Part shown: positions 3,027-21,032 of the stretch, one piece after another
How positions within the stretch are numbered: position 1 is the first letter of the stretch
Layout: each line of letters starts with the position of its first letter
Assembly (NCBI RefSeq): GCF_000186885.1
Contig: NC_014972.1
Location: 240,001-272,000 of the forward strand
Direction: 5' to 3'
DNA: 32,000 nt
Source of the DNA: Desulfobulbus propionicus DSM 2032
GTDB lineage: Bacteria; Desulfobacterota; Desulfobulbia; Desulfobulbales; Desulfobulbaceae
Translations under genes and position numbers: made by a program
Notes under the pieces: generated by a model
Told to the model about the DNA's origin: nothing
The model's database searches: none
What the model saw: the letters and a program-made list of their open reading frames with translations, nothing else

Positions 3027-4103
3027 TCAGTCTGCCCACTCCAATTTACGGATGAGATCCTTGAACATTTGCCATTGCCCTGTGAGAAATTGATACCGCC
3101 CGGCAACGATGCCCGGAGAAATGCGCAGTTCGTCGGCCAGAAGGATGATCTCTTGCTTGCTGCGACAGTTAGAAATCCGGGCATCATGCTTGGCGGGAAT
3201 AAGGGTTTCCGCAGCAAAGGCATCGGCTTTTTTTTCGCTGAGGTCACCATTGCTCTCGTCGTTGATGAAGAGCCCCTTCTTCTTGTCCTTGAGCACATGG
3301 CCAGCTTCGTGAAAAAATGAAAACCAGAACTTATCCTCTCCCTTGCCACGCAGACTGAGCAGGATCATCGCCTTGTTGGGGGTTAGCCACTTGGTGGCGC
3401 CGTTCCAGGGTACCTTTTTCATCTCGCGTACCAGGGCCACAGCTACACCGGCATTCGCACAAAGCTGTTTCATTCGAGGCTCAAACACCACCGATTCTTC
3501 CCGGGTGAGAGGACGAATCTCCTCCAAAGCAGCACTGAACCTGGTTTTATCGAAAGGGGCACACTCAATCTGCTGTGCCTGCAGTTCGCCCTGACGGATC
3601 CAGGCGGCCGCATCTCCTGGCCGGGATTCAAAGCAACGGGACCTTCGGGCAGCCACAGCGGGGGCAGCCCAGATCTCCTGCCAGGCCTGCACGCTGCAAA
3701 CACCAAAAAAGGCAAGAACCTTACGGACCAGATTCACCTTGTCATCGTCCGGCACCACATGGCCTCGCTCAATCAATTCTTTGATCGGGATCGTCTTCAG
3801 CCAGGCTTTGTCGGCCTCCAACCTTTGCCGCTCTTCCTGCTTGGCTAACTGCTCCCGGTATTGCGCTTCGAGATTGTTCCACATTCTCGCCGGTACACCT
3901 GTCACCAGTTCCAGTCGGTTGGCGGTTTCATAGGAAATCGGTTGGTCACCCTTGAAAATGCGGGTGAGTGTTTGCTCGGTCAGCCCGGTTCGTTGGGCCA
4001 ATTCTTTTTGGGACATCTGCAGAGATTCCATAACCTCGTGCAATGTCGCCCCTGGTGGAACCGCATAATCAGGTTCAAATTCGTCTTTTCTTTTCGCTCT
4101 CAT
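3027..4103 (-). CDS. Antitoxin-like regulator: N-terminal XRE-type HTH fused to an ImmA/IrrE-type (HExxH) metallopeptidase domain
   Basis: The HTH segment reads MSQKELAQRTGLTEQTLTRIFKG. The zinc motif FFHEAGHVL lies in the C-terminal half. The preferred start is the ATG at 4103 (MRAKRK...), preceded by AAGGAGGGGGG. The gene lies 14 nt downstream of the toxin stop. The ORF track begins at a TTG at 4121. Confidence 0.8.
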   Translation of the reverse strand: MRAKRKDEFEPDYAVPPGATLHEVMESLQMSQKELAQRTGLTEQTLTRIFKGDQPISYETANRLELVTGVPARMWNNLEAQYREQLAKQEERQRLEADKAWLKTIPIKELIERGHVVPDDDKVNLVRKVLAFFGVCSVQAWQEIWAAPAVAARRSRCFESRPGDAAAWIRQGELQAQQIECAPFDKTRFSAALEEIRPLTREESVVFEPRMKQLCANAGVAVALVREMKKVPWNGATKWLTPNKAMILLSLRGKGEDKFWFSFFHEAGHVLKDKKKGLFINDESNGDLSEKKADAFAAETLIPAKHDARISNCRSKQEIILLADELRISPGIVAGRYQFLTGQWQMFKDLIRKLEWAD

Positions 4104-4117
4104 CGCTCCCCCCTCCT

Positions 4118-4472
4118 TCAATGCGTATCGGCAATTTCCACTATTTCAATTTCCGTGACTTGCCCCCAGTCCAACCCACCATGTGGATGTACTGGTATTG
4201 GCTCGTTAGCGGGAATGAAAAGCAAGCGATACGGGTATTCCAGATCGACAGACAGTTGGGCCGCTTCGATTACCCGTCAACTCGTGGCACCTGGCAGGGG
4301 GCAAACGTGAAATATCGCCCAGATTTTCGGCAGCCTTGAGTTCCATCATTCGCTGCATCAGCTTGCCGCCCCGCTTGGCCCCCAACAGCTTGATTGCCTC
4401 AGCACTGTTTGAGCATATTTTTTGGAGCTTTTTGTTTTTAAAGAATATACGCACGTTGCGCACTAATCTCAA
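4118..4472 (-). pseudogene. HigB-like (plasmid maintenance system killer, RelE superfamily) toxin, disrupted by a +1 frameshift
   Basis: The ORF reads ...FFKNKKLQKICSNSAEAIKLLGAKRGGKLMQRMMELKAAENLGDISRLPPARCHELTGNRSG and then goes out of frame. Removing one base of the GGG run at 4258-4260 restores QLSVDLEYPYRLLFIPANEPIPVHPHGGLDWGQVTEIEIVEIADTH, ending at TGA 4118-4120. That is the typical C-terminus of this toxin family. The start is ambiguous (TTG 4472, GTG 4463 or GTG 4454). Confidence 0.75.
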
Positions 4473-4838: not shown

Positions 4839-7031
4839 ATGAACGGTGAAACCCATAGTCAACTGGCCAACTTCATTTGGTCTATCTGCAATCTTTTGCG
4901 CGGCCCGTACAAGCGCAACGAATACCGTAAGGTCATCCTGCCGCTCACCGTGCTGCGCCGCTTCGAATGTTTGCTGGAGCCAACCCGGCAGGCTGCCCTT
5001 GAAGAATTCCAATCGCTGAAGACCAAGCCGGAACGGGTGCAGCAGGCACGATTGCAGCAGATCACCGGCCACCGTTTCTATAACCTGTCGCGCATGCAGC
5101 TCACCCTGCCGGGTGAAAAAATTCACTCGCTGCTGGACGATCCCAACAACCTCGCCCCCAACCTGAACAGCTACATCAACGGCTTCTCCGCCAATGTCCG
5201 CGCCATCATGGAGAAGTTCAAGTTCAGCGAGCAGATTGCCCACATGGCGGAAAAGAACATCCTCTTCGAGGTGATCAAGGCCTTTGCCGGGATTGATCTC
5301 TCGCCCCAGCGGGTCGACCAGATGCAGATGGGCTATGTGTTCGAGGAGCTGATCCGCATCGGCGCGGAGCAATCGAATGAGGAGGCCGGAGAGCACTTCA
5401 CCCCGCGCGAGGTCATCAAGCTGATGGTCAACCTGCTGCTGGCCCCAGAGCAGGACCTCGCCAAGAGCCACGTGGTCAAGACTATCTACGACCCCGCCTG
5501 CGGCACCGGCGGCATGCTGTCGGTGGCCGAGGAATACATCCGCCACCTCAACAGTGAGGCCAAACCCAAGGTTTTTGGCCAGGACTGGAACGACGAGGCC
5601 TGGGCGGTGTGCAAGTCCGACATGCTGATCAAGGGCGAAGATGCCAACAACATCATCCTCGGCGACAGCTTCACCCGCGACGGCTTTGACCGCGATTCTG
5701 ACGGCAACAAGTGGACCTTCGACTACATGCTGGCCAACCCGCCCTTTGGCGTGGAGTGGAAGCAGCAGCAGAAAACCATCCAACAGGAGGCCGACACCCT
5801 GGGCTATGCCGGACGTTTCGGCGCCGGCACCCCGCGCATCAACGACGGCGCCTTGCTCTTTCTCCAGCACATGATCGCCAAGATGCGCCCCGTCGATAAA
5901 GACGGCAGCCGCATCGCTATCGTCTTCAACGGCTCACCGCTCTTCACCGGCGACGCGGGCAGCGGCGAGAGCGAGATCCGCCGCTGGATCATCGAAAACG
6001 ACTGGCTGGAGGCCATCGTCGCCCTGCCGGAACAGTTGTTCTACAACACCGGCATTGCCACCTATATCTGGGTGATCACCAACCGCAAAGCCAAGGAGCG
6101 CAAAGGTAAGATTCAGTTGATCGACGCCCGCAACTTCTGGGTACAGATGGAAAAGTCCCTGGGCAACAAGCGCCGCCGCATCGGCGACCCGAATGACCCG
6201 AATCACCCACGCGATCCTGACTACATCGCTGACATCACCCGGGTCTATGAGAACTTCACCGACGGTGAAAGCCGTTGGGTTGTCTTCGACAAGGATAGCA
6301 AGGTTCTCGGCGTGAATGGGCTTGAGCCGACAGTCGATGACTCGAACGGGCAGAAGAAAAAATATCTGGTGGTCAGCAAGCTGTTCGACAACGAAGACTT
6401 TGGCTACCACAAGATCACCGTCGAGCGCCCTCTACGTCTCAATTTCCAAGCCACGGCCGAACGCATCGCCCGGTTGGAGGAGCAGACCGCCTTTAAGAAT
6501 CTCGCAACCAGCAGCAAAAAGAACGAAATCGTTCGCCAGCAGGAGATCGAGACCGGTAAGGCTCGTCAGCAGGCCATCCGCGACCTGTTGGCTGCCTTTG
6601 CCGACCAGCACGGCGACACCCTGTTCAAGGATCGCAAACAGTTCCTCCTTGCCCTGCGGGAGATCGACCGCGCTCGAGGCGTCAAACTTTCCGCCCCAGA
6701 ACTGAAGGCGGTGCTCGCCGTCCTGGGTGAACGCGATGAAACCGCATCCATCTGCAGGGATAAACAGGGTAACCCTGAGCCGGACACCGACCTGCGCGAC
6801 ACTGAGACCGTGCCGCTCAAGGAAGGAGTTGAGGAATATTTTCGGCGAGAGGTCCTGCCCCACGTCCCCGATGCCTGGATCGACCACAGCAAGACCAAGG
6901 TCGGCTATGAGATTCCCCTAAACCGTCACTTCTACCGCTATGAGCCGCCCCGTGAGCTTGCCGAGATCGAGGCAGAGATCAAGGTGCTGGAGGGGGAAAT
7001 CCTCGACCTACTGCGAGAGGTGACGGCATGA
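4839..7031 (+). CDS. hsdM: Type I restriction-modification system, DNA methyltransferase subunit M (N6-adenine)
   Basis: N-terminal HsdM_N-like segment (LANFIWSICNLLRGPYKRNEYRKVILPLTVLRR). SAM motif I is YDPACGTGGML and catalytic motif IV is LANPPFG. The gene is part of an operon with hsdS and hsdR. Confidence 0.95.
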   Translation: MNGETHSQLANFIWSICNLLRGPYKRNEYRKVILPLTVLRRFECLLEPTRQAALEEFQSLKTKPERVQQARLQQITGHRFYNLSRMQLTLPGEKIHSLLDDPNNLAPNLNSYINGFSANVRAIMEKFKFSEQIAHMAEKNILFEVIKAFAGIDLSPQRVDQMQMGYVFEELIRIGAEQSNEEAGEHFTPREVIKLMVNLLLAPEQDLAKSHVVKTIYDPACGTGGMLSVAEEYIRHLNSEAKPKVFGQDWNDEAWAVCKSDMLIKGEDANNIILGDSFTRDGFDRDSDGNKWTFDYMLANPPFGVEWKQQQKTIQQEADTLGYAGRFGAGTPRINDGALLFLQHMIAKMRPVDKDGSRIAIVFNGSPLFTGDAGSGESEIRRWIIENDWLEAIVALPEQLFYNTGIATYIWVITNRKAKERKGKIQLIDARNFWVQMEKSLGNKRRRIGDPNDPNHPRDPDYIADITRVYENFTDGESRWVVFDKDSKVLGVNGLEPTVDDSNGQKKKYLVVSKLFDNEDFGYHKITVERPLRLNFQATAERIARLEEQTAFKNLATSSKKNEIVRQQEIETGKARQQAIRDLLAAFADQHGDTLFKDRKQFLLALREIDRARGVKLSAPELKAVLAVLGERDETASICRDKQGNPEPDTDLRDTETVPLKEGVEEYFRREVLPHVPDAWIDHSKTKVGYEIPLNRHFYRYEPPRELAEIEAEIKVLEGEILDLLREVTA

Positions 7032-8086
7032 GTGAGCACCTGCCGGTGAAGAACGAAGGGGACATTCTCCTGTACCAGACCGAGGACGGCCAGGCGCGCA
7101 TTGAGGTGCAGTTGGTCAATGAGACCGTCTGGCTCTCGCAAAAGCAGATGGCCGAACTGTTCCAAAAAGATGTCCGCACTATCAACGAGCATATTGGCAA
7201 CATCTTTGAGGAAGGGGAGCTGACGCCGGAATCAACCATCCGGAATTTCCGGATAGTTCAACTCGAGGGCACACGGAAGGTCAGTCGCGATGTCGCCCAC
7301 TACAACCTGGACGTTATTATCTCGGTCGGATACCGGGTGAAGTCGCATCGGGGCACTCAGTTTCGCATCTGGGCCACCCAGCGGTTGCGCGACTATCTGG
7401 TCATGGGCTTTCTGCTCGACGATGAACGTTTTAAGCAGGGTAGAAGCGGCCATTATTTCGATGCGCTGCTGGCCCGGATCCGCGATATCCGCTCCTCAGA
7501 GAAGGAGTTCTGGCGCAAAGTGCTCGATATCTACGCCACCAGTATTGATTACAACCCCTCTACCCAGGCCTCGCAAACCTTCTTCGCCACCGTGCAAAAT
7601 AAAATGCACTGGGCAGCGCACGGCCACACCGCCGCCGAAATCATCCACGCCCGCGCCGATGCCGCCCGGCCCAACATGGGGCTCACCTCCTTTCCCAAGG
7701 GGCAGCTCGCCCCGCGCAAGGCCGATGTGACAGTGGCCAAGAACTATCTGAATGAAGACGAACTCGACCAGCTCAACCGCATCGTCAACCTCTACCTGGA
7801 ATTTGCCGAACTACAGGCCATCAACCGTAAGCCCATGTATATGCAGGACTGGATAGCCAAGCTCGACCAGTTCATGCAGATCAGTGATCGCGAGATTCTC
7901 ACCCACGCCGGCAGCATCTCCGCCGAAACTGCCCGGCTCAAGGCCGAACAGGAATATGACGGCTTTCGCCGCCTGCTTGATACCCAGCCATCTCTGGTGG
8001 AGAGGCATTTTGAAGAGGCGGTAGCCAAGGCCAAACAACTGAACGAACAGTCGAAACCGACGAAGAAAAAAAGGAGGAGGCAATGA
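7028..8086 (+). CDS. rhuM: RhuM-family protein embedded in the type I R-M operon
   Basis: The N-terminus (LLYQTEDGQARIEVQLVNETVWLSQKQMAELFQKDVRTINEHIGNIF...IRNFRIVQLEGTRKVSRDVAHYNLDVIISVGYRVKSHRGTQFRIWATQ) matches the pattern I recall for RhuM/virulence-protein family members. ATGA overlaps occur at both ends (7028-7031 and 8083-8086). Confidence 0.8.
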   Translation: MSEHLPVKNEGDILLYQTEDGQARIEVQLVNETVWLSQKQMAELFQKDVRTINEHIGNIFEEGELTPESTIRNFRIVQLEGTRKVSRDVAHYNLDVIISVGYRVKSHRGTQFRIWATQRLRDYLVMGFLLDDERFKQGRSGHYFDALLARIRDIRSSEKEFWRKVLDIYATSIDYNPSTQASQTFFATVQNKMHWAAHGHTAAEIIHARADAARPNMGLTSFPKGQLAPRKADVTVAKNYLNEDELDQLNRIVNLYLEFAELQAINRKPMYMQDWIAKLDQFMQISDREILTHAGSISAETARLKAEQEYDGFRRLLDTQPSLVERHFEEAVAKAKQLNEQSKPTKKKRRRQ

Positions 8087-9491
8087 ACTGCCCGGCCTAT
8101 CCAAGGTACAAGGACAGTGGGGTGCAGTGGCTGGGCGAGGTGCCGGAGCATTGGGAGATTCGTCCTATAAAGGCTATTGTCTCCACACCAGTCACCGACG
8201 GGCCTCACGAAACCCCTGAAATATTCGATGAGGGTGTTCCGTTTGTATCGGCAGAGGCTATTAGCAATGGAAAAATCAATTTTAACAAGATTAGAGGGTA
8301 CATTTCAGCAGAAGACCATCGAAAATACTCAAGAAAATACAGACCAGAGTTCGGCGATATTCAGAGTTCGGCGATATTTACATGGTTAAATCTGGTGCAA
8401 CGACCGGCCGTGTTGCGATGGTAGAGACGCATACAGATTTTAATATTTGGTCTCCGCTCGCAGCAATACGGTGCAATCCTTCCCGTGCCGATAAACGATT
8501 CATTTACTTCTATCTTCAGTCCAAAGAGTTTCAAACCGGAGTTGAGCTGAGTTGGAGCTTTGGTACGCAACAGAACATCGGAATGGGTGTTATCCAGAAC
8601 CTTGCGGTTCCGCTTGGTACGATCCCGGAACAAACTGCCATCGCCGATTTTCTCGACCGGGAGACGGGGCGGATCGATACGCTGGTGACAAAAAAGCGGC
8701 GGCTGATCGCGCTGCTGGGGGAGAAGCGCACCGCGCTCATCTCCCGCACCGTCACCCGTGGCCTGCCCGCCGAGGCCGCCCGCGAATTCGGCCTCAAACC
8801 CCACACCCGCTTCAAGGATTCCGGCATCGAGTGGCTGGGTGAGGTGCCGGAGGGGTGGGAGGTAGTCAAGTTTTCAAGAGAAGTTAAAATAGCCGAAGGT
8901 CAAGTTGATCCAGAACGTGAGCCCTACTCTACAATGGTTCTGATTGGGCCAGAACATGTTGAGGCAGGAACTGGCCGTTTAGTAAGCGAAGCTACAGCTG
9001 AAGATCAGGCAGCAATCAGCGGTAAATATTACTGCCATAAAGGTGAGGTAATCTATTCAAAAATCCGTCCCGCACTTAGGAAGGTCGTTAAGGCAAAAAA
9101 CGATTGCCTGTGCAGTGCTGACATGTATCCACTGGGAGGTAGAGATAAGTTACTGAACGATTACATATACTGGCTCTTCCTATCAGATCAGTTTGCGGCT
9201 TGGTCAGTTCTGGAGGCTGACAGGGTAGCAATGCCTAAGATCAATCGTAATACATTGAATGAGCTACGGTTACCCGTACCGGTTGGCTCTGAGCAAGCCG
9301 CCATCGCCACCTACCTCAACCGCGAAACCGCCAAGATTGATCAACTGTTTACTAAGGTCGAGGCGGCCATCGTCCGTTTGCTGGAGTACCGCACCGCGCT
9401 GATCACTGCCGCGGTCACCGGCAAGATCGATGTGCGGGGGAAGGCGGACAAACAGGGACTAACACGGACGGATCGGACTGATCCGAACTGA
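8083..9491 (+). pseudogene. hsdS: Type I R-M specificity subunit S, split by a 17-bp tandem duplication
   Basis: Two ORFs (8083-8424 and 8382-9491) together give a full HsdS. It has two target-recognition domains and the two conserved helical repeats (IPEQTAIADFLDRETGRIDTLV... and EQAAIATYLNRETAKIDQLF...). Deleting one copy of the 17-bp repeat joins ...RPEFGDI to YMVKSGATTGRVAMV... in frame. Confidence 0.9.
8345..8378 (+). repeat. Perfect tandem duplication, 2 x 17 bp (CAGAGTTCGGCGATATT)
   Basis: 8345-8361 is identical to 8362-8378. The +17 nt shifts the hsdS frame by +2, matching the frame offset between the two hsdS ORFs. Confidence 0.97.
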
Positions 9492-9542
9492 TCTGAACTG
9501 GACAGATCGACACCAACCAGGGGAGGCACAACAGAAGGCACG

Positions 9543-10199
9543 GTGGAAAAAGAACCTCTGATTCCCAAACATGGCGGCTACCGGAAACTGAAAAGTTTCC
9601 AGGTCGCGCAGTTGGTGTATGACATCACGGTGCGATTCTGCGACCGCTACATTGACCGTCGCAGCCGTACCCACGACCAGATGGTGCAGGCAGCGCGCAG
9701 CGGTGTGCAGAACATTGCCGAAGGGTCGCTGGCCTCGGCCACCTCGAAGAAGATGGAACTCAAACTCACCCAGGTGGCCCGCGCCAGCCTGGAAGAGCTC
9801 AAGCTCGACTACGAAGATTTCCTGCGGCAGCGGGGGCTGGCCATGCTGGAGCCCAGCCATCCTGCGCTGACGCGCTTCAAAAAGCACAAACCGCAAACGG
9901 TTGCGGCGTTTGCGGCCTGGATCGAAGAAGAGCGGCAAAGGAACACGGACGGACCAGGACAGACACAGATGGGCAAGGACAGCCGGATCGACGAGTCGTC
10001 GGTGCCGGTCGGTGCTGGTCCGTGTCAGTCCTTGTCATCCGCCTGCCTGGCGGCCAATGGGGCGCTTTCGCTGCTCAACCTGGCCTGCTATCTTCTTGAG
10101 CGCCAGGTGGCGCAGCTTGCCGACACCTTTGAAAAAGAAGGCGGCTTCACTGAGCGGCTCTACCGGGTGCGCACCGCTAATAGGAGGAGCAAAGGATGA
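9543..10199 (+). CDS. Four-helix-bundle protein of the type often found inside type I R-M operons
   Basis: ...YRKLKSFQVAQLVYDITVRFCDRYIDRRSRTHDQMVQAARSGVQNIAEGS...LEELKLDYEDFLRQRGL fits the four-helix-bundle family (23S rRNA intervening-sequence-protein-like) as I recall it. It has a GTG start, and its stop overlaps the hsdR start (ATGA at 10196-10199). Confidence 0.65.
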   Translation: MEKEPLIPKHGGYRKLKSFQVAQLVYDITVRFCDRYIDRRSRTHDQMVQAARSGVQNIAEGSLASATSKKMELKLTQVARASLEELKLDYEDFLRQRGLAMLEPSHPALTRFKKHKPQTVAAFAAWIEEERQRNTDGPGQTQMGKDSRIDESSVPVGAGPCQSLSSACLAANGALSLLNLACYLLERQVAQLADTFEKEGGFTERLYRVRTANRRSKG

Positions 10200-13100
10200 G
10201 CACACAGACCAGCGAAAAAGCCTTTGAAACCTATGTCGAGCACATGCTGCTGGCCAAGGGTTGGCAGCAGGGTTCGGTGAGTGAGTGGGACCAAGAGCGG
10301 GCGCTGTTCCCCGGTCAGATTGTTGCGTACATCGCCGCCACCCAGCCGCAGTTGTGGCAGGCAATGCGCGGCCAGCACGGGGCGCAGTTGGAACCGATGT
10401 TGCTGTCAACGTTGGTCAAGGAACTGGCCATCAAGGGCTCACTCTCTGTGCTGCGCCACGGTTTCAAGTTCTACGGCAAGACCTTTCGCCTGGCCACCTT
10501 CAAGCCTGCACATGGCCTCAATGACGAGGTCTTGGCCCAGTATCAGGCCAATCGCTTGACCGTCACCCGGCAGGTGGCCTGCCATCCGGGCGACCATTCG
10601 ACGGTCGATTTGCTCTTTGCCGTCAATGGCCTGCCGGTTGCCACTTGTGAGCTGAAAAATCCCTGGACCGGCCAGAGCTGGCGTCATGCAGTGCGCCAGT
10701 ACCAGGAGGACCGCAACCCGCGCGCGCCGTTGTTCGCGTTCAAAGAGCGGGCCTTGGTCCATTTTGCCGCCGACCCGGATGAAGTGCACATGACCACCCG
10801 GCTGGCCGGGGCCAAGACCTTCTTCCTGCCCTTCAATCGCGGCAGCCACCCTGGTGCGGTGCAGTGCGGCGCGGGCAATTCGCAACACGCTTGCGGCTAC
10901 CGCACCGGCTACTTCTGGGAGGAGATACTTGAGCGCGAGAGCTTTCTCGACATTCTCGGCCATTTCGTGTTCGTCGAGAAGAAGGAGGAAAAGGTGGACG
11001 GCGGCAAGGGTGGCAGCCGGATCAGGACCCGCGAGACCATGATCTTCCCGCGGTACCACCAGTTGGACGCCACCCGCAAACTGATCGCCGCCGCCCGCGC
11101 CGAGGGGCCGGGGCAGAACTATCTCATTCAGCATTCGGCGGGCAGCGGCAAGACCAACTCCATTTCCTGGCTGTCGCACCGGCTGGCCAGCCTGCATGAC
11201 GAGCACGATCACAAGGTGTTCGACTGCGTCATCGTCATCACCGACCGGCAGGTGCTCGACCGCCAGTTGCAGGATGCCATCTACCAGATCGAACATGCCC
11301 AGGGTGTGGTCAAGGCCATCGACCAGGATTCCAAGCAGTTGGCTTCGGCGCTGATCGACGGCACCAAGATCGTGGTCACCACCCTGCAGAAGTTTCCCTT
11401 TGTGCTGCGCGGCTTGCTCCATACCGCTGGGGCTGAGAACCTGGACAGTCCCGACGATGAGGCAAAGGCGCAGGCCAAGGCCTGGGAGGCTGAAATCGGT
11501 AAACGCCGCTATGCGGTCATTGTGGACGAAGCCCACTCCTCCCAAACCGGTGAGACGGCGCGGGAGCTGAAGGCCATTCTGGGCGCAAGCAACGGCGACA
11601 TGAACGATGACGAGGAGGCTGACTTGGAAGATCGGCTCAATCAGGTGATGGCCTCGCGGGGCCGCCAGCCTAACCTGAGCTTCTTTGCCTACACCGCCAC
11701 CCCCAAAGGAAAAACGCTCGAACTTTTTGGCCGTACCGGTCCCGGCGGCAAGCCGGAACCCTTCCATCTCTACTCCATGCGCCAGGCCATCGAGGAGGGG
11801 TTTATTCTCGATGTGCTGCGGAACTACACCACCTATGCCACCTATTTCCGGCTGATCAAGGCGGTGGAGGACGATCCCGATCTGCCCAAGAAGAAGGCTG
11901 CGCGGGCGCTTTCAAAATTCCTGGTGCTGCACCCGACCAACATCGCCCAGAAGATCGAGGTGATCGTCGAGCATTTCCGGGGCCATGTGCGCACCCATCT
12001 CGGTGGACGGGCCAAGGCGATGGTGGTCACCAGCTCACGCCTGCAGGCGGTGAAATACATGGAGGCTTTCCAGCGCTATATCGGCGAGCAAGGCTACACC
12101 GACATCCGGCCGCTGGTGGCCTTCAGCGGCACGGTGCGCGATCCGGACACCGGCTTGGAATATACCGAACCAGGAATGAATCTTGACGTGGTGGGCGGCA
12201 AGCCAATCAGCGAGAAGCAACTGCCCGAGCGCTTTGCCTCGCCCGATTACCAGGTGCTGCTGGTGGCCAACAAGTACCAAACCGGCTTTGACCAGCCGTT
12301 GTTGATGGCGATGTACGTGGACAAGCGGTTGGACGGCGTGCAGGCGGTGCAGACCCTGTCGCGCCTCAACCGCATGGTGCCGGGCAAGGAGACGCCGTTC
12401 GTGCTTGATTTCGTCAACGAAGCTACGGACATCTACCGAGCCTTCAAACCTTATTTTGATGCCACCAGCCTGCAGGAAAGTTCGGACCCCGCCCTGCTCG
12501 AACAGCTCAAGCATGCGTTGGACGGGTTTCAGGTCTATCACTGGAGCGAGGTGGAGGCCTTTGCCCGCATCTTTTACCGAGCACCAAACAAGCAGAATCC
12601 GGCCGACCATGCTCACTTGCAACGACATCTGCAACCGGCGGTGGATCGCTTCAAGGCGATGGAGGACGAGGAACAACGCGGCGAATTCCGCGACAAGCTG
12701 AGCGGTTACGTGAAGGTGTACAGCTTCCTCAGCCAGATCATCCCCTACGCTGACCCCGATCTGGAGATGCTCTACAGCTTCGGCCGCTTGCTGCTACCGC
12801 ATCTGGTGCTTACACGCGACACCGGCACCGTCAAGCTCGGCGATGAGGTGGGTTTGCAGTACTACCGCCTGCAGCGGGTCTTTTCCGGGGCCATTGAGCT
12901 GCGCGAGGGGGAAGGCGAATACGGGGTGAAGAGCCCCACCGATGTCGGCACCGGCAAGGCCAAGGAAGAAAAAGCGCCGCTGTCGGAGATCATCGAGGTG
13001 TTGAACGACCGTTTCGGCACCAACTTCACCGAAGAGGACCGCCTCTTTTTCGAACAGATCAAGGAGAAGGCGACCAAAAGCCCGGAGGTGGTCCGGCTGC

Positions 13101-13297
13101 GCAGGGCCAACCCTTTTGACAAATTCCAACTGGGCCTGCGCCAGATGCTGGAAGACCTGATGATCCAGCGCATGGGAGAAAACGACAGGATCGTCTCTCG
13201 GTACATGGACGACAAGGCCTTCGAGGATGCCGCCTTCGCGGTCCTCTCCAGGGTGATTTACAAGACAATCCCGGCCGAGGGTGGCGCCGTGGAGTGA
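10196..13297 (+). CDS. hsdR: Type I restriction endonuclease subunit R (SF2 helicase/translocase plus PD-(D/E)xK nuclease)
   Basis: N-terminal nuclease motif (DLLFAVNGLPVATCELKN). Walker A is HSAGSGKTNS and the DEAH box is VIVDEAHSSQ. Later helicase motifs are present (FAYTATP, QTGFDQP). Length 1033 aa. Confidence 0.95.
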   Translation: MSTQTSEKAFETYVEHMLLAKGWQQGSVSEWDQERALFPGQIVAYIAATQPQLWQAMRGQHGAQLEPMLLSTLVKELAIKGSLSVLRHGFKFYGKTFRLATFKPAHGLNDEVLAQYQANRLTVTRQVACHPGDHSTVDLLFAVNGLPVATCELKNPWTGQSWRHAVRQYQEDRNPRAPLFAFKERALVHFAADPDEVHMTTRLAGAKTFFLPFNRGSHPGAVQCGAGNSQHACGYRTGYFWEEILERESFLDILGHFVFVEKKEEKVDGGKGGSRIRTRETMIFPRYHQLDATRKLIAAARAEGPGQNYLIQHSAGSGKTNSISWLSHRLASLHDEHDHKVFDCVIVITDRQVLDRQLQDAIYQIEHAQGVVKAIDQDSKQLASALIDGTKIVVTTLQKFPFVLRGLLHTAGAENLDSPDDEAKAQAKAWEAEIGKRRYAVIVDEAHSSQTGETARELKAILGASNGDMNDDEEADLEDRLNQVMASRGRQPNLSFFAYTATPKGKTLELFGRTGPGGKPEPFHLYSMRQAIEEGFILDVLRNYTTYATYFRLIKAVEDDPDLPKKKAARALSKFLVLHPTNIAQKIEVIVEHFRGHVRTHLGGRAKAMVVTSSRLQAVKYMEAFQRYIGEQGYTDIRPLVAFSGTVRDPDTGLEYTEPGMNLDVVGGKPISEKQLPERFASPDYQVLLVANKYQTGFDQPLLMAMYVDKRLDGVQAVQTLSRLNRMVPGKETPFVLDFVNEATDIYRAFKPYFDATSLQESSDPALLEQLKHALDGFQVYHWSEVEAFARIFYRAPNKQNPADHAHLQRHLQPAVDRFKAMEDEEQRGEFRDKLSGYVKVYSFLSQIIPYADPDLEMLYSFGRLLLPHLVLTRDTGTVKLGDEVGLQYYRLQRVFSGAIELREGEGEYGVKSPTDVGTGKAKEEKAPLSEIIEVLNDRFGTNFTEEDRLFFEQIKEKATKSPEVVRLRRANPFDKFQLGLRQMLEDLMIQRMGENDRIVSRYMDDKAFEDAAFAVLSRVIYKTIPAEGGAVE

Positions 13298-13667: not shown

Positions 13668-14215
13668 TGTCGGGTGCCAAGAAAAAGCCGACGTGGAATG
13701 ACCTCAAACGCACCATCGGCGGCTTGGACCGAGATGCCCTGCTGGGCTTGGTGCATGATCTCTATGTAGCCCACAAGGAGAACAAAACCTTCCTGCACGC
13801 ACGATTTGGCTTGGGCGACGATGTTTTGGAACCTTACAAGGCGACCATCTCCCGCTGGGTTTGTCCCGATGTGATGCGTAACCAGGATTACTCGGTTTCC
13901 AAGGCCAAGAAGGCGATCTCGGATTACAAAAAGGCCGTTGGTCATGCCGAGGGGCTGGCTGAGTTAACGGTGTTCTATTGCGAATCCTGCCGGGATTTTC
14001 TTGGATTTTGCAGCGTAGATGACGAGGTGTATTTCAATGCCCTGGTGCGAATGTTCGAGCAGGCTTTGAAATGGATCCGGCAGCTTGATTCGGATCAGCA
14101 AGAACACTATCTGGAGCGGCTTGATAGTGTTCACTATCGAGCCGGCGATTGGGGATGGGGCGTGAGCAGCGACATGAGCGAGCTGATGGCGGAGTATGGA
14201 TTTGCCGAAAAATGA
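13664..14215 (+). CDS. Hypothetical protein (183 aa); layout reminiscent of DUF6155-type proteins (from memory, unverified)
   Basis: Clean ORF coupled to the upstream acidic ORF. It ends 50 nt before the point where int1 homology stops. Confidence 0.55.
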   Translation: MMSGAKKKPTWNDLKRTIGGLDRDALLGLVHDLYVAHKENKTFLHARFGLGDDVLEPYKATISRWVCPDVMRNQDYSVSKAKKAISDYKKAVGHAEGLAELTVFYCESCRDFLGFCSVDDEVYFNALVRMFEQALKWIRQLDSDQQEHYLERLDSVHYRAGDWGWGVSSDMSELMAEYGFAEK

Positions 14216-14264
14216 CGAGCCTTTGAATGTGCAAGATGAACTCAAGCGGCTGCATGAGGAGAAT

Positions 14265-15407
14265 GTAGGCTGCTCCCAGGGGGCCTTTGACTGCGTGGCC
14301 GAGTTGGCGTTCAATAGGCTCTTCATCGCAACCAAGCTCCTGGCGGATAAGCGTTCTGGCAGTTGCCCTGAGTCCATGGACATGCAATTCTTCCTGGCTG
14401 TATCCCATGCGTCTGAGGGCATTGGTCAAGGTGGCATCGCTCATTGGCCTAGCCGTTGATCGCAGGCCGGGGAAGAGATATTTTCCCTGGCCGGTCAAGG
14501 CCTGGACCTCCCGCAGGATATCAATAACCTGGGTTGCCAAAGGCGCCAGATGAAAAGCTGAACCGCTGGTCTCTTTATCTCGCTTGCGCCCTTTCATCTT
14601 GGCAAGGGGGATACGCCATTCCGCTTTCGCAAAATCGAATTCCGACCATTCGGCAAAACGAATCTCCTTGCTTCGCAAAAAGACATGTGGCGTCAGCTGC
14701 AAGGCGCAGCGTGTGATCGGCGAGCCGGGATATCGGTCAATGGCCCGGAGTAATTCTCCAACCTGCTTGGGATCGGTGATGGAGGACATGTGGCTGACAT
14801 TGGGTCGCGGGATCGCGCCTCGAAGGTCAGCGGCCGGATTACGCTCCGCCCGGCCGGTGGCAATGGCATACATGAAGACTTGGCCGGCATTGGTCTGTGC
14901 CCGATGGGCATTTTCCAGGTGCCCCCGAGCCTCAATGCGACGTAAAGCCGAAAGCAATTCCGGTGCTGATATCTCGCCAACGGGACGAGCGCCAATCCAT
15001 GGAAATAAATCGCGACGCAGGCGGCCGGAGATGCTCTCCAGATGACTTTCTGTCCACTGATGCTTGAATTTCTCCAGTCACTCTTCGGCAACGGTTTGAA
15101 AGGTGTTGTCCGTTGCGTTTGTACCTTTGCGAATTTTTCTGACGAGGCCCGGATCAACACCCTCTGCAAGTTGCTCTTTTGCCTGTTGGGCGCTTTTTCG
15201 TGCCTTGGCAATCGATACGTTGGGATAGACGCCCAGGGCGAGCAGCTTTTGTTTGCCGCCGTACCGGTACGCCATGCGCCAATATTTGGAGCCGTTCGGC
15301 CTGACTTCCAGAAACAATCCGCCACGATCCGCCAACCTCTTGGTTGTTGCTCCTGGTTTGGCGTTTCGTAGCGCCAGTTTGGTTAATTTGTTGGTCATTC
15401 CACCCAT
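14265..15407 (-). pseudogene. P4-type tyrosine integrase (int1): in-frame TGA nonsense codon plus replaced C-terminus
   Basis: ORFs 15078-15566 and 14034-14957 are in the same frame, separated only by a TGA at 15078-15080. The aligned residue in int2 is Trp (AEE*LEKFKHQW versus AREWFLKNKHTW). The catalytic R, HxxR and H...Y (LGHAVKGPLGAAY) are present. Similarity to int2 ends right after the Tyr (about 14265), and the reading frame then runs antisense into the 183-aa gene. The start is the ATG at 15407, after GGGAGG. Confidence 0.85.
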
Positions 15408-15545
15408 GTTGGTACCTCCCGTTGCGAAGAAAACCGGTTTGTTTGTCCGAACGTATCGAAATGGCAGGAATTTTTCGAATAACTGTTGGCACCGTGTTGG
15501 TACCAACATGAGGGGTGTTGGTACATGCCCCTGAGAGTACCAACA
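15407..15545. repeat. Six copies of TGTTGGTAC (both orientations) at and upstream of the int1 start; candidate arm-type or regulatory sites
   Basis: Copies at 15407-15415, 15484-15492 (variant TGTTGGCAC), 15495-15503, 15500-15508 (inverted, forming the palindrome TGTTGGTACCAACA), 15516-15524 and 15537-15545 (inverted). Confidence 0.5.
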
Positions 15546-15590
15546 AATACAACCAGATCTGCTCAAATTGCAACGGACACCCCTGGACGC

Positions 15591-15623: not shown

Positions 15624-15727
15624 TAATGGACATCTTTAGATGGTGTTGGACAATGACATGGGAAGCAGACCTTCACATTGAGCCGCCAACTATCAGTTTT
15701 CATTCAAACTTGCCAATTCAAATCCGA

Positions 15728-15750
15728 GAGATACCATCAAAAGTACCATC
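15728..15750 (+). repeat. 23-nt repeat GAGATACCATCAAAAGTACCATC (copy 1), candidate Int2 arm-type site at the distal end of element B
   Basis: 22/23 identical to 28488-28510, in direct orientation. It contains two TACCATC half-sites. Confidence 0.6.
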
Positions 15751-15769
15751 ACGGCCTGCCGGTACCCCA

Positions 15770-16246
15770 TTATTCAGGGTCGATTTTGACGTTCGGCTTG
15801 GTCTCTTTCACGGCCACATATTTTTCAATGGCGGCCTTGACCTCATCAGGATCCTGGATGCCTAAAGCGTGTCCGGACTGCATGAATTTTTTGAAATCCG
15901 ATGTGGTCTTGTAGGTGGTGCTCTTGATGAAGAACCGAGCAAACAATGGCCCCAGGGGAACCGCGATATCTTCCACCTTTTTGCTCACCGAAAAAGATTC
16001 TCTGAAGGTGACAACTGCCTTGGCCGACACCCCTTGAAGGGAAACGGTGGTGCTCCCTTCCCGCCGGGCCTGCGCTATCTCTATGAGCCTGGATTGTACA
16101 GCGTCAAGTTCACCTTGCGCGGCATCTACCTTACTCTTGAGCCTCAGGCCTTTTTGGATGAGTTTTTCAATGTCCGCATCTTCGGCGGGCATGAGATATT
16201 TCTTTCCATCTACCTGAACCTTCTTGATTTCCTTGACAGGTTTCAT
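15770..16246 (-). CDS. Hypothetical protein (158 aa) with an N-terminal coiled coil; faint resemblance to Mu Gam-type proteins (unverified)
   Basis: Preferred start is the ATG at 16246 (MKPVKEIKK...), preceded by GGGGGAG. The ORF track begins upstream at 16303. Confidence 0.55.
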   Translation of the reverse strand: MKPVKEIKKVQVDGKKYLMPAEDADIEKLIQKGLRLKSKVDAAQGELDAVQSRLIEIAQARREGSTTVSLQGVSAKAVVTFRESFSVSKKVEDIAVPLGPLFARFFIKSTTYKTTSDFKKFMQSGHALGIQDPDEVKAAIEKYVAVKETKPNVKIDPE

Positions 16247-16736
16247 TGACTCCCCCTTTTTCATGACAACGCTGATCCCGCCAAGTCCCGCAAGATCCCA
16301 CATAGTCCCGGATAATTGTTAGAAATATGAAACTTTCTTCGTTCTTGGTAGCAACTAGAGGCCGACACGCACTATTCAAAAAATTTGCGGCAAATCAGGC
16401 CAGGACCACCGGCCAGGAACCCGCAAAAATCTGGCATGGTGAAAGTTTGCATGTTAAAACGGGCCAAAAATTTAACATTTTCCAGACCATTTGCGCAAGC
16501 AGGTATATGAAATTAAAGATAAATTTCAAAAGTGCTATAAGAACCACTATCATCATCACAACTGTTTTTCCGGGCTTGCAATCAACGAAGAAAATAGCGC
16601 AACATTTTGATATTATTGTATAAATAGAAAGGCCAGCTTTAGGGCATGGGGTATAATCTTACTATTACACAAAGTCTGGTATTTTATCACGCAAAGACAG
16701 GCGGTTGCAAACGTGTTAAAACGGTTTGCGCCCTGT

Positions 16737-17867
16737 TATTGACCGAATGGATAAATAGTTAAATTACCAGTGGGCTGTTAGCTCAAAATCGTGTATTCTT
16801 TTCGCATGGAAAAGATCGATGCACGAACACATAACCAGCAGACCCAATACGAGTTGCGCAAGCAGGTTGTCAGGCTCCGAAAGCGTGGTTTTTCGAACAA
16901 AGAAACGGCTGAACTCGTTGGCATCTCCGCGGCACATGCCAGTACGATCTGGAGCAAGTATTCGCGAGACGGCATTGAGGCAATCAAACCGGGTAAGCGC
17001 GGCCGCCGACATGGAACCCAGCGGGTTCTTGAGGCTAACCAGGAAACGGCAGTGCAAAACATGCTTGTGGATAAGGCCCCGAATCAATTGAAGTTGCCGT
17101 TTGCTTTGTGGACTCGGGACGCTGTCCGTCTGGCGATCAAGCGAGAGTTTGGCCTTGAATTGCCGCTGCGTACCATCACCGACTATCTCAAACGATGGGG
17201 CTTTACTCCGCAAAAGCCAGCGAAACGAGCCTACGAGCAGAATCCGGAAAAGTTGAAGCAGTGGCTTGAGCAAGGATACCCAGAAATTGCCGACCGAGCG
17301 AAACAAGAGAAGGCGGAGATTCATTGGGGAGACGAGACTGGGGTGAACAACGAGGCGTATAACGCCCGAGGCTTTGCGCCCAGGGGAAAAACACCGATTG
17401 TCCGGTTGCATGCCAAGCGAAGCAGCATCAACATGATCTCGTCGATCACCAACCAGGGCAAAGTCCGCTTCATGCTGTATCGAGAAACGATGACCGCACC
17501 GGTGCTGATCAAGTTCATGTCCCGGTTGATCAAGGATGTGGAGAAGAAGGTCTTCCTGATTCTGGACAATCACCGGGTGCATCATAGCAAACGGGTGAAG
17601 AAATGGCTTGATGAGCATCAACAGTGGATTGAAGTCTTCTTTTTGCCACCTTATGCGCCGGAACACAACCCTGACGAATATCTGAACGGAGACCTGAAGC
17701 AACGGATACGCTCCGGTCTTCCTTCCAGGAGCCAGGAAGATTTGGCAAAGAAAACCAGGTCGTTCATGAAGACTTTGCAGCGACGACCTGAACATGTCAG
17801 AAATTACTTCAACCATCAACTTGTTCGTTATGCCGCATGATTTCGATATTTATTCACCGGAGTAATA
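16737..17867 (+). mobile_element. IS630-family insertion sequence (about 1.13 kb)
   Basis: A single DDE transposase ORF is flanked by imperfect 28-bp terminal inverted repeats. The left repeat is TATTGACCGAATGGATAAATAGTTAAAT. The reverse complement of the right repeat is TATTACTCCGGTGAATAAATATCGAAAT. They match at 19/28 positions without gaps. TA is present at both ends, consistent with the family's TA target duplication. Confidence 0.75.
16806..17840 (+). CDS. IS630-family DDE transposase
   Basis: N-terminal HTH (GFSNKETAELVGIS). Catalytic triad context is HWGDETGVN, LILDNHRVHHS and PPYAPEHNPDEYLNGDLK. An alternative GTG start exists at 16791. Confidence 0.9.
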   Translation: MEKIDARTHNQQTQYELRKQVVRLRKRGFSNKETAELVGISAAHASTIWSKYSRDGIEAIKPGKRGRRHGTQRVLEANQETAVQNMLVDKAPNQLKLPFALWTRDAVRLAIKREFGLELPLRTITDYLKRWGFTPQKPAKRAYEQNPEKLKQWLEQGYPEIADRAKQEKAEIHWGDETGVNNEAYNARGFAPRGKTPIVRLHAKRSSINMISSITNQGKVRFMLYRETMTAPVLIKFMSRLIKDVEKKVFLILDNHRVHHSKRVKKWLDEHQQWIEVFFLPPYAPEHNPDEYLNGDLKQRIRSGLPSRSQEDLAKKTRSFMKTLQRRPEHVRNYFNHQLVRYAA

Positions 17868-17872
17868 AAACC

Positions 17873-19153
17873 TCACCGGTTCAGTGGGTTGTGCATGCCC
17901 GGGTGATCGTCATAGCTCTGGGCGGCATGGACATAAATCATGGTGGTGTTGATATCCTGGTGCCCGGCCAGCTTTTGGATGTCCTGCAACTTCACCCCTT
18001 CCTGCGCAAGCATGGTGAAGGCGGTATGCCTTAGGGCGTGTGGGCTCAGTGTCGCCTCTTCCCTACTGATCTTGGCCTTCACTAGGTACTTCTTGACCAC
18101 GTTCTCAACGGCCTTTACTGACAGTGGCTGGTGCTTCCGGTCCCGGCGAATAACCAGCTCCTGGTTGTTGCGGTCATAGATGAAGGGGAGAAACACCGGC
18201 GTCTCTCCATCAACCGTCACCCCCTGCCGGCCGACGGTATCCAGCCAGTCGTCAAAGGCACGAAGAGCCCGGCCGCTCAAAATGATGGCCGTCTTCGGCC
18301 GGTTTTGGAACTTCCCCTTTCGATCCACGATCCAGGCCTTTTGCTGCCCCTTCACCCGCTCCCGCTCAAGGTTCTTGTGCCGCAGGCCGGCCACCTCATT
18401 GGCCCGCAGGCCGTACACCAGAATGAGCAGCAGCAGGGCATAGTCACGCTTGCCGATGGCGGTCCGCTTGTTGACCTGCTTCAGTAGCCGCTCCGATTCC
18501 GCCGTTGACAGCACGCTGTAGTAGCCCTTGTCCTTCTTCGGGAATATCAGTTTTAGCCCCTTGAAAAAGATAGGGTTCTTGAACTTCCGGTTTTCCCGCT
18601 CGACAAACTTGAAAAAGCGGTTGAGGGCAACGAACTTGTTCCAGATCGTTGAATCCTTGTGGCGCTTTTCGTTTCGCAGGTGATCCCGGTATGCAAGGAT
18701 GGCCTGGATATCGATCTCGGCAAGGTCCTTACCGGCCCAGGTGAAGAACAGCTTGACCTGGTTCTCGTAACTGCGCCGGGTGTTTTTGGTGTTTTGCTCG
18801 GCAAGGAAGGAGGCCAGGTATTTTTTGAACTCGTCACTGGCGGCGCCCTTGTGCGTCTTGAAGGTATCGAGGCTTTCAATCGGGTTTACGAAGCCTTTAA
18901 CGGCCGTTGCAACGAACTTGAAAAAATTGTTCAGGATGGAGAATTTCCGTTTCGTCGTTGCCGGGCTGTGCTGCACTGCAAGGTGGCCCTGGTACTCATG
19001 CAGGGCGGCCGCATCGACCTGGTTGATGTCGAGGCCTTTAAAGTCGAAGAACTGCTGAATCTCGGAACGATAGACGCGCTGGCTGCCGCCTTTGTACTTG
19101 GCCAGGTACTTCGCAAACAACTTTTGCCCTTTTGCAGTGTCAAGAAATGCCAT
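17873..19153 (-). CDS. Tyrosine recombinase (phage integrase family) with a duplicated N-terminal SAM-like core-binding domain
   Basis: The C-terminal catalytic domain is intact (GLRANEVAGL, HALRHTAFT, LAGHQDINTTMIYVH). Residues about 10-85 and about 105-185 form an internal repeat (..KYLA..Y...I..FF...D..D..A...Y..HL....T...KF..LN.FFKFV). Confidence 0.85.
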   Translation of the reverse strand: MAFLDTAKGQKLFAKYLAKYKGGSQRVYRSEIQQFFDFKGLDINQVDAAALHEYQGHLAVQHSPATTKRKFSILNNFFKFVATAVKGFVNPIESLDTFKTHKGAASDEFKKYLASFLAEQNTKNTRRSYENQVKLFFTWAGKDLAEIDIQAILAYRDHLRNEKRHKDSTIWNKFVALNRFFKFVERENRKFKNPIFFKGLKLIFPKKDKGYYSVLSTAESERLLKQVNKRTAIGKRDYALLLLILVYGLRANEVAGLRHKNLERERVKGQQKAWIVDRKGKFQNRPKTAIILSGRALRAFDDWLDTVGRQGVTVDGETPVFLPFIYDRNNQELVIRRDRKHQPLSVKAVENVVKKYLVKAKISREEATLSPHALRHTAFTMLAQEGVKLQDIQKLAGHQDINTTMIYVHAAQSYDDHPGMHNPLNR

Positions 19154-19156
19154 ACG

Positions 19157-19543
19157 CTACCCGTCTTGCTCCTCTGCGCCGCCCTGCTTTCCCTGCTGTT
19201 CATCAGCAGCCTCACCAAGGATCGTCCACACCTGCCTTTCGCAAACCCCGGTAAGTGATGACAGCTCATGAGCGGTAATATTGCCCTGATCGTAAATCGA
19301 ACGCATGATGACGTTGCGCCACAACCTGATGAACTTATCCGGCTTGCGAAGGTATAGATGCTGGCCAGGGAACACTTGAGCCAGCAGCAAGGTCAGCCGC
19401 ACGCCATCGCCTGGCATGTGCTCATCAATGGCGGTTGCAACGGTTTTCAGCTCACCGGGAAGGTCGCTGATCTTCGGGAGGAAGTCCTTTGGCAGATGTA
19501 CCACCGGCGGCCGCAGGCAGCGCAACACATCGCGATTATCCAT
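19157..19543 (-). CDS. Mor-family (Mu middle operon regulator-like) transcriptional activator, paralog 1
   Basis: ELKTVATAIDEHMPGDGVRLTLLLAQVFPGQHLYLRKPDKFIRLWRNVIMRSIYDQGNITAHELSSLTGVCERQVWTIL fits the Mor layout, with a C-terminal HTH. The preferred start is the ATG at 19543 (MDNRD...), which overlaps the upstream gene's stop (ATGGATAA). Confidence 0.7.
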   Translation of the reverse strand: MDNRDVLRCLRPPVVHLPKDFLPKISDLPGELKTVATAIDEHMPGDGVRLTLLLAQVFPGQHLYLRKPDKFIRLWRNVIMRSIYDQGNITAHELSSLTGVCERQVWTILGEAADEQQGKQGGAEEQDG

Positions 19544-20009
19544 TGTCCTGCTCCTCTGCGCCGCCCTTCTTGCGCTCGACAATCTTTCCCAGGGCATAGT
19601 ATGCCTTTTGCGCCTGCTTGCGGTCCATGGTGCGAAAATCCTCCACCTTGATCCATTTCTCGAGCCAACCCTTGATTTCTTCTTTGCTCCATCCCAGGTC
19701 CCTGAACATCAAACGGATATCCATGACATGGTAGTGGCTCGGCAGCGTCTCTCCGCCTTCAACCTCGTTTTCTCGTGGTGGCGGAAGCGGTCCGGTCCGG
19801 ACCGTCTGCCCGGTCATCTTGCCAATCATGAAGAGCTCTTCCTGCTTTGACAATGCCGTCAAGCTCGGTATCCCCGTCAAGTCTGCCGCCAATCGGTACA
19901 CCTCGTCTTGCGAAAATCCGTGCTTTCTCCCCTGGAAATGAAGGGATTTGATCAGCTGCTTCGGGATGGGCTCAAACACCTTGATAGGCCGTTTCATCGT
20001 CAATTCCAT
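19536..20009 (-). CDS. GemA/gp16-like (DUF1018-type) regulatory protein
   Basis: IKSLHFQGRKHGFSQDEVYRLAADLTGIPSLTALSKQEELFMIGKM and HVMDIRLMFRDLGWSKEEIKGWLEKWIKVEDFRTMDRKQAQKAYYALGKI match the two-block pattern I recall for Mu GemA-family proteins. The start is uncertain (ATG 20009 or ATG 19997). Confidence 0.6.
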   Translation of the reverse strand: MELTMKRPIKVFEPIPKQLIKSLHFQGRKHGFSQDEVYRLAADLTGIPSLTALSKQEELFMIGKMTGQTVRTGPLPPPRENEVEGGETLPSHYHVMDIRLMFRDLGWSKEEIKGWLEKWIKVEDFRTMDRKQAQKAYYALGKIVERKKGGAEEQDNG

Positions 20010-20032
20010 GTGGGGGGTGTTTTTTCAAAAAC

Positions 20033-20300
20033 CTGCACCATCTACACCATTTCATCGTAAAATACTGTTTTTCCGTTTAATTTCGTGGTGTAGATCATAT
20101 TGACGATCTACACCACGGTTGAGAATTTACATTTTTATTCAGGCGGTTAGATAGGCATCGTGGATCCACACCACCTGAAGAGGATCTACACCACGTGGTG
20201 TAGGTCAAAAGGGGATGTACACCACGCCTACACCAGGGATATACACCAAACAAATATAATAAAATTATATATTTATAAAGAAATGGTGTAAAGGTGTAGG
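20033..20300. repeat. Iteron-like array: at least 11 copies of (GAT)CTACACCAC in both orientations plus an AT-rich tract; candidate origin or regulatory hub
   Basis: Direct copies at 20042, 20107, 20165 (variant), 20185, 20216 (variant), 20227 and 20240 (variant). Inverted copies at 20085, 20195, 20284 (variant) and 20292 (variant). An 18-bp perfect palindrome CTACACCACGTGGTGTAG lies at 20186-20203. The AT-rich block is 20250-20283. Confidence 0.75.
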
Positions 20301-20376
20301 CATTTTCACATATACGCCCTGTTTTTTTTAGCCACCAACGAAAAAAATAGGTTTGCGGGCAGTTTGGGAATTATTA

Positions 20377-20589
20377 TCACAGTGTCCTTTTTTGCACCCC
20401 CCCCTTTTTACCCATGACCCTCCCCTGATTTTTCGACCAAAAACTGGCACCCCTTACCACTCCCTTTTCCAGGGCAGGCTGTTTCAACTTGCCGAGATGG
20501 AGTAAAGTCCCAGGGAAACTGATTCCTTTTTCGGTCATCTTTATCCTTGCCTTGACCGTTTTGCCTTTCCGCTTCTGTATCAATTTCAC
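20377..20589 (-). CDS. Possible small basic protein (70 aa), uncertain
   Basis: GTG start preceded by GGAGAGG and overlapping the Mor2 stop (GTGA). The product is very K/R-rich. No motif is recognised, and it could be spurious. Confidence 0.3.
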   Translation of the reverse strand: MKLIQKRKGKTVKARIKMTEKGISFPGTLLHLGKLKQPALEKGVVRGASFWSKNQGRVMGKKGGVQKRTL

Positions 20590-20945: not shown

Positions 20946-21032
20946 GATAGATTTTTCCAATTTTCTCTCAATTTATGCAAGTTCAGGCATTGCTTTTGAA
21001 TACATCGAGGCCGCCAGTCACATCGTTTTCAT

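Follow-up and report, generated by a model that had tools for sequence, protein, structure and literature searches.

In type I restriction-modification (R-M) systems, the specificity subunit HsdS places HsdM2 (and HsdR2) on the DNA through two target recognition domains (TRDs) and a coiled coil, and without HsdS there is neither methylation nor restriction. The copy number of short repeats in hsdS can vary, as in EcoR124I and EcoR124II, in which a 12-bp repeat is present in two or three copies in the central conserved region of the gene. Here we describe a 17-nt tandem duplication inside the hsdS gene of a type I system in Desulfobulbus propionicus DSM 2032, located in a 32,000-nt stretch of the genome (NC_014972.1, positions 240,001 to 272,000 of the forward strand) that is referred to as the window and to which all coordinates below refer. 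The duplicated hsdS is probably a young null allele of single origin, potentially revertible by the loss of one copy.

Three groups of cited systems are close enough for comparison. Phase-variable hsd genes driven by simple sequence repeats (SSRs) have been recognized by tracts of at least three units, of a length that is not a multiple of three, or by homopolymers of at least 9 nt (Atack et al. 2020, PMC7383803), and a three-unit tetranucleotide tract switches at a rate of 0.5-2e-6 (PMC7383803). Phase variation by tandem duplication has been reported for the pneumococcal capsule genes cap3A, cap8E and tts (Waite et al. 2001, 2003, as cited in PMC4022640), and the account given in PMC4022640 puts the reversion of a capsule-gene insertion of up to 9 bp at about 1e-5 at most. 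In Yersinia pestis, finally, a 30-bp internal duplication has turned rcsA into a pseudogene that is stably carried (PMC4381331; Sun et al. 2008).

The 17-nt unit CAGAGTTCGGCGATATT occurs in exactly two identical tandem copies on the forward strand at 8345-8378, preceded by ...AATACAGAC and followed by TACATGG. The first copy (8345-8361) supplies codons 88-93 of hsdS (P-E-F-G-D-I), and the second, inserted copy (8362-8378) moves the reading frame by +2. Tandem Repeats Finder (TRF) reported a period of 17 with 2.0 copies and 100 % matches, so that the perfect frameshifting duplication named in a preliminary description of this DNA was recovered both by direct inspection of the sequence and by the program. 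A script run over the window detected no further perfect tandem duplication among units of at least 10 nt, and CAGAGTTCGGCGATATT is absent from the rest of the window on both strands; the chance expectation for such repeats in 32 kb is about 2e-6. The k-mer ACAGACCAGAGTTCGGCGATATTTACATGG is specific to the single-copy allele and the junction GGCGATATTCAGAGTTCGGCG to the duplicated allele.

The repeat is exactly 34 nt long, with C at 8344 against T at 8361 and T at 8379 against C at 8362. Since the flanking bases fail to extend it, the junction has no microhomology, which is unusual for duplications made by slippage. An alternative origin would be a staggered cut, either as the target-site duplication of a mobile element that inserted and was later lost cleanly or as the fill-in of 17-nt staggered nicks; this would concern how the allele arose, not its effect. 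Insertion sequence (IS) elements are indeed found near the island in one of the metagenome contigs described below (L003, IS21-type and DDE_5 genes). However, no remnant of an element lies between the two copies, the site has no inverted repeat, and the local DNA hairpin at the lesion is not significant (z = -1.3). Moreover, bacterial IS families do not typically produce target duplications of 17 nt, and the loss of an IS seldom leaves both copies intact. An origin by staggered cutting is therefore considered highly improbable.

The window does not encode a single HsdS with two TRDs and two coiled-coil helices but two open reading frames (ORFs), both on the forward strand. The N-terminal fragment (8083-8424, 113 aa) consists of 93 native and 20 out-of-frame residues: after residue 93 the frame leaves the native sequence, continues as QSSAIFTWLNLVQRPAVLRW and terminates at the TAG codon at 8422-8424. 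The C-terminal fragment (8382-9491) is 369 aa long if read from the ATG at 8382 and 357 aa from the ATG at 8418, the start taken by gene callers, and contains the remainder of TRD1, the central helix CR1, TRD2 and the C-terminal helix CR2. The complete arrangement is regained only in a natural intact allele (P0001, on contig L001; see below) or by deleting one of the copies, which gives a single ORF of 463 aa, as had been anticipated in the preliminary description. The repaired 463-aa HsdS has two Methylase_S domains and matches the solved structures 7VRU, 1YF2, 3OKG and 2Y7C.

An AlphaFold2 model of the natural intact allele (mean pLDDT 92.8, pTM 0.82) places TRD1 at residues ~19-172, the CR1 helix at 175-220, TRD2 at ~238-393 and the CR2 helix at 396-439. 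Residues 88-93 directly precede the strand 93-96 within the core of the modelled TRD1 globule. Thus, the duplication had been located correctly inside TRD1, but not in being put just before the GDI motif, since the unit itself encodes P(88)EFGDI(93); the motif GDIY..KSGATTG is kept in homologues. According to the model, the N-terminal fragment would correspond to half a TRD with no coiled-coil helix, while the C-terminal fragment would lack the first ~95-105 residues of TRD1 and retain ~70-80 residues of the incomplete domain.

We found no Shine-Dalgarno sequence in front of the ATG at 8382 or the ATG at 8418, and no internal sigma-70-like promoter upstream of the C-terminal fragment. The ATG at 8418 overlaps the upstream stop codon (ATGgTAG), which is the sole feature that could yield some of this fragment. 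The segment 8330-8424 has no slippery heptamer for -1 frameshifting (X XXY YYZ) and hsdS has no homopolymer of 7 nt or more, the longest runs being two A6 tracts, so that no basis for rescue by programmed ribosomal frameshifting was found. Because the N-terminal fragment is without the rest of TRD1 and both helices, and because the C-terminal fragment is incomplete and has no ribosome-binding site, the locus would make no normal specificity subunit. Judging from the biology of type I systems, a null allele is the most likely outcome of the duplication, and it is reasonable to expect that the whole type I system is silenced, with neither methylation nor restriction.

It is improbable that the split gene still works, either through a C-terminal fragment (CR1-TRD2-CR2) that is reinitiated at ATG 8418 and serves as a one-TRD subunit with altered specificity, or through reassembly of the two fragments. 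The overlap of ATG 8418 with the stop codon at 8422-8424 would suit translational coupling, and the C-terminal fragment is predicted to retain both coiled-coil helices and a complete TRD2. Truncated HsdS proteins can also be active, as in NgoAV, which uses a 208-aa N-terminal half, and many natural half-size HsdS proteins (~220 aa) carry this type of TRD. Yet the known active truncations keep a whole TRD and a helix, with the repeats situated between the TRDs (PMC7383803), whereas the break described here falls within the TRD1 globule and leaves a partial domain on the C-terminal fragment, for which neither start codon is preceded by a Shine-Dalgarno sequence. In NgoAV itself, the downstream fragment (hsdS2) encodes no active protein.

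When the repaired HsdS was used as a query against ~5.8 billion proteins, two matches of 100 % identity were obtained: P0001, which is intact and 451 aa long, and P0002, which corresponds to the 357-aa C-terminal fragment. P0002 is encoded on 7 metagenome contigs (L002-L008), and the 113-aa ORF that is specific to the duplication was present on 12 contigs from 11 accessions (JGI 3300002219 and 3300000568; ERZ27315046; ERZ922796/SRR636559; DRR358088; DRR381268; SRR28386958; SRR26484016; SRR27751818; SRR29904083; ERR7015317). Since at least three of the accessions, including SRR636559, stem from one SCADC alkane-degrading culture, these amount to about ten independent sources, one of which (SRR26484016) is a Dehalococcoides enrichment. 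Two copies of the unit were present in every contig with the duplication-specific ORF for which DNA was retrieved (L002-L008 and the rest), and the hsdS gene in all duplicated contigs is 100 % identical to that in the window. Exact scans for a junction-proximal 30-mer in genome and metagenome contig collections gave no match, although the sequence is present in a JGI contig; the source species is evidently absent from these collections, which thus provide no allele count.

These data also bear on the reality of the lesion. The source genome was assembled in part from 454 data, which could raise the suspicion of a sequencing or assembly artefact, but it is a finished genome (454 and Illumina, 147x coverage) with a stated error rate of <1e-5 that was polished with 110x Illumina data (PMC3072085). 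The same 34-nt tract recurs in assemblies of unrelated samples produced by JGI, ENA/MEGAHIT (k127, k141) and Logan, and as the k-mer sizes given in the MEGAHIT contig names exceed 17 nt, such assemblies would be expected neither to introduce the repeat nor to collapse it. Because independent assemblies made with different assemblers carry the identical tract, the duplication is no artefact, and the earlier statement that it cannot be a base-calling error holds. We rejected an assembly artefact on the strength of these independent assemblies, and the probability of any artefact in the source genome is considered negligible.

A core of 2.3 kb around hsdS (7446-9763) is free of substitutions in all of the duplicated contigs, and the allele is taken to be young because of this invariance. 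The flanks, on the other hand, are mosaic: L006 and L100 have a block of ~6 % divergence in the 3' part of hsdM and in rhuM (5956-7445), L007 and L008 have a block of ~6 % divergence in the 5' part of hsdR (9970-12277, ivp/hsdR 5'), and other duplicated contigs show 22-30 clustered differences further into hsdR. For this reason, the duplicated core is assigned to at least three flanking haplotypes. The mosaic could be the product of recombination, in the form of frequent homologous exchange between related type I loci, or of partly chimeric assembly across paralogues. To judge from their sequence identity, all of the duplicated (OFF) alleles trace back to one mutational event. Several contigs (L099-L102) have their ends at 8669-8773, within the part of hsdS that encodes the conserved central helix; this would be expected of a segment common to several hsdS alleles.

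The single-copy (ON) allele was found on one contig only (L001, 4.85 kb, from the Logan assembly of ERR7015313), against two copies on 12 contigs and in the window. Except for the 17 bp, L001 and the window have the same sequence over 7973-9412. At the end of hsdS, its last ~30 codons and the 3' tail differ from those of every duplicated allele (...VRGTSKD against ...VRGKADKQGLTRTDRTDPN) by numerous small indels, at a place where imperfect repeats of 9-10 nt occur, and it differs further in the 3' part of rhuM and at five sites in hsdR. The closest duplicated relative of L001 is L006 (98.8 %), while L008, from a run with a neighbouring number (ERR7015317), has 84 mismatches to it. Both the one-copy and the two-copy states thus exist in nature, on different haplotypes, and the duplicated allele is predominant in D. 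propionicus-like populations from many sources. Because its flanking haplotype and its 3' tail are different, L001 is not shown to be a revertant; it may represent the ancestral allele that has survived, a product of recombination or a revertant. A search with TRD1 alone for partial proteins with an intact junction yielded none of >79 % identity, but it also missed P0001 and so was not exhaustive.

The preliminary description had proposed a reversible ON/OFF switch, in which collapse of the duplication by slippage and its re-formation would be frequent enough for both states to coexist in a population, toggling the R-M system. Several observations fit this proposal and at the same time weigh against a simple null allele. 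The two states occur with an otherwise identical hsdS body, and in runs with neighbouring numbers (ERR7015313 and ERR7015317), which is how a revertant would look. The remainder of the operon is intact: hsdM, hsdR and both of the genes nested among them are open in every contig, a pattern that selection and a very recent lesion fit equally. Reversible switching by perfect tandem duplications is known from pneumococcal capsule genes, according to the work of Waite and colleagues (2001, 2003) as cited in PMC4022640. Finally, the metagenome contigs show only the majority allele of each sample.

The distribution and structure of the alleles nevertheless make such a switch unlikely. All OFF alleles over the ~10 sources carry one identical event and no alternative duplications were seen among them, while the ON allele lies on a different haplotype, has an hsdS tail unlike that of every OFF allele and was assembled from one source, against the ~10 sources and the source genome for OFF. 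With only two copies and no microhomology at the junction, the step from ON to OFF has no favoured route. The island on which the system resides has an integrase with a nonsense mutation. A stronger version, in which the duplication collapses as a working switch, the ERR7015313 allele is a natural revertant and the OFF cells form a reserve that yields restriction-proficient cells anew, for example under phage pressure, is given a slightly lower probability still.

The comparison with SSR-driven type I systems points in the same direction. As in NgoAV, with its poly-G tract in hsdS, a change in repeat length alters the reading frame, but the published pattern of at least three units situated between the TRDs (PMC7383803) is not that of the D. 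propionicus locus, in which 2.0 copies of a 17-nt unit lie inside the modelled TRD1 globule (residues 88-93 in a domain spanning 19-172), well ahead of the CR1 helix that starts at 175. In the SSR systems, the tracts between the TRDs toggle between a full-length and a truncated HsdS that are both active (PMC7383803), whereas the truncated product here contains neither a complete TRD nor a coiled-coil helix. The locus shares with the pneumococcal capsule type that a perfect tandem duplication within an ORF abolishes the reading frame and that a precise single-copy allele exists. However, in pneumococcus (Waite et al. 2001, 2003, cited in PMC4022640) many independent duplications of varied length and position were found and their reversion was measured, whereas every OFF allele of hsdS has the same 17-nt event at the same site; the genes also differ in kind, being capsule genes in the one case and an R-M specificity subunit in the other.

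The duplicated hsdS is similar to rcsA of Y. pestis in that an internal tandem duplication of small size has inactivated a gene and is stable through a lineage, with a sister lineage that keeps the single copy; in rcsA, by contrast, the loss was shown experimentally to be adaptive and the duplication of 30 bp is in-frame in length, unlike the frameshifting 17 bp in hsdS. Like EcoR124I and EcoR124II, the locus has undergone a change in the copy number of a short tandem repeat in hsdS, of a kind produced by unequal crossing-over or slippage, but the repeat in those systems is in-frame and alters the spacer length of the recognition sequence without inactivating the subunit.

We therefore favour a young, potentially revertible null allele of single origin as the probable explanation. 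A single duplication event has shifted the frame of hsdS beyond residue 93, within the TRD1 core, and with no normal specificity subunit the cell would neither methylate nor restrict, even though hsdM and hsdR are intact. The system resides on an old island at a tRNA-Ser gene, with a dead integrase, and the loss of hsdS would be an early step in the decay, or an adaptive loss, of this R-M island. Reversion could occur if replication slippage or a RecA-independent deletion removed precisely one copy, and by analogy with other tandem duplications it would be physically expected at some low rate. Re-creating the same 17-nt duplication should be far rarer than its collapse, given that no junction microhomology is available to guide the step from ON to OFF. 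A dedicated, bidirectional programmed switch is not supported, and the OFF state, which persists in almost all of the sources and on an island whose integrase is dead, rather resembles a fixed tandem-duplication pseudogene such as rcsA of Y. pestis.

Frameshifted hsdS genes are common and lesions of the tandem-duplication type less so, and nothing in the locus falls outside known categories. If the allele is a plain null, it captures a defence island early in its decay or adaptive loss, in the form of an allele spread over many anaerobic communities, and the specificity gene would be the first to go while a potentially toxic nuclease and the methylase remain intact. For annotation, this means that the type I system of this genome should not be counted as active and that the methylome of the strain should lack its motif. 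In the methylome literature, Desulfobulbus is unmentioned in the supplements of Blow et al. 2016, and our search found no paper linking D. propionicus to a methylome. If revertants turned out to be frequent, duplication-based phase variation would extend from capsule genes to R-M systems, and a true switch would be the first case of R-M phase variation by tandem duplication, that is, by neither SSRs nor inversion, and in a free-living environmental anaerobe rather than a host-adapted pathogen. As both alleles are present in the wild, reversibility is directly testable with public reads.

Within the window, hsdS is the sole broken gene of the operon, all of which is on the forward strand. It begins with an intact hsdM gene for a protein of 730 aa (4839-7031) that has the features of a type I methylase, an HsdM_N domain (PF12161, 1.9e-24) and an N6-adenine methyltransferase domain (PF02384, N6_Mtase, 5.5e-58), while its match to TIGR00497 is below the cutoff of that model. 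The hsdR gene (10196-13297, 1033 aa) is likewise intact and encodes the HSDR_N nuclease and SF2 motor expected of a type I system, with HSDR_N, SWI2/SNF2, ResIII and T1R_D3-like domains (PF04313, PF18766, PF04851, PF22679). A gene assigned to the RhuM family by domain search (7028-8086) is situated between hsdM and hsdS, and a gene for a four-helix-bundle protein (9543-10199; similar to the 23S rRNA intervening-sequence protein, IVP, with a 4helix_suffix domain) between hsdS and hsdR. The two accessory genes are nested in the operon with overlaps of start and stop codons, and both are kept in every related contig.

The C-terminal tail of HsdS, KADKQGLTRTDRTDPN (9440-9500), is coded by overlapping, imperfect tandem repeats of 9-10 nt (TRF rows 9445-9500), and several small indels separate it from the intact allele in L001 (tail TSKD) and from homologues such as P0006. 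On this sequence pattern the tail appears hypervariable and is probably prone to slippage. The type of TRD1 found in this HsdS is very frequent in half-size, single-TRD HsdS proteins (~200-250 aa) from many metagenomes (P0125-P0240), and in other HsdS proteins (P0044, P0107) it takes the place of TRD2, an example of the shuffling of TRD modules.

The R-M island also contains a gene for a tyrosine integrase on the reverse strand (14034-15566) with an in-frame stop codon at 15078-15080, a position occupied by Trp in an intact paralogue. The lesion is shared by the metagenome contigs spanning it, which match the window there without gaps; we therefore take it to be real, and the R-M island is probably immobilised. 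In the window, an element of 13 kb (15662-28623) separates the R-M island from the integration site, a tRNA-Ser(CGA) gene on the reverse strand (28624-28713). This element includes an intact tyrosine integrase gene (27231-28460), a second integrase gene (17873-19153) and genes with DnaG-like zinc-ribbon and Toprim domains (22076-24873). It is missing from contig L002, in which the R-M island adjoins the tRNA-Ser gene directly, as if islands had accreted in tandem at one tRNA. The 13-kb insert has a direct repeat of 23 nt close to its two ends (15728-15750 and 28488-28510, 96 %). BioB, encoded in the flank, is matched best (at about 82 %) by proteins of Desulfobulbus genomes. At the left edge of the island, a gene on the reverse strand (3027-4121) encodes a fusion of a HigA-like HTH with a peptidase domain of the M78 (IrrE) type, with an ORF of 88 aa (4206-4472, reverse strand) just upstream; the two may constitute a toxin-antitoxin or regulatory pair.

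Related type I loci in other metagenomes (L089-L093) encode a 329-aa HsdS protein, P0020, and have a fragmented hsdS (125 + 58 + 329 aa), in which TRD1 is of another type and a tandem duplication is absent. P0020 was considered as a parallel that would indicate recurrent breakage at the same site, and was rejected because of the different TRD1, the other mode of fragmentation and the missing tandem duplication. The decay of hsdS seems to be common in this family of type I loci. In the P0020 loci, a gene with an FRG domain is located between hsdS and hsdR.

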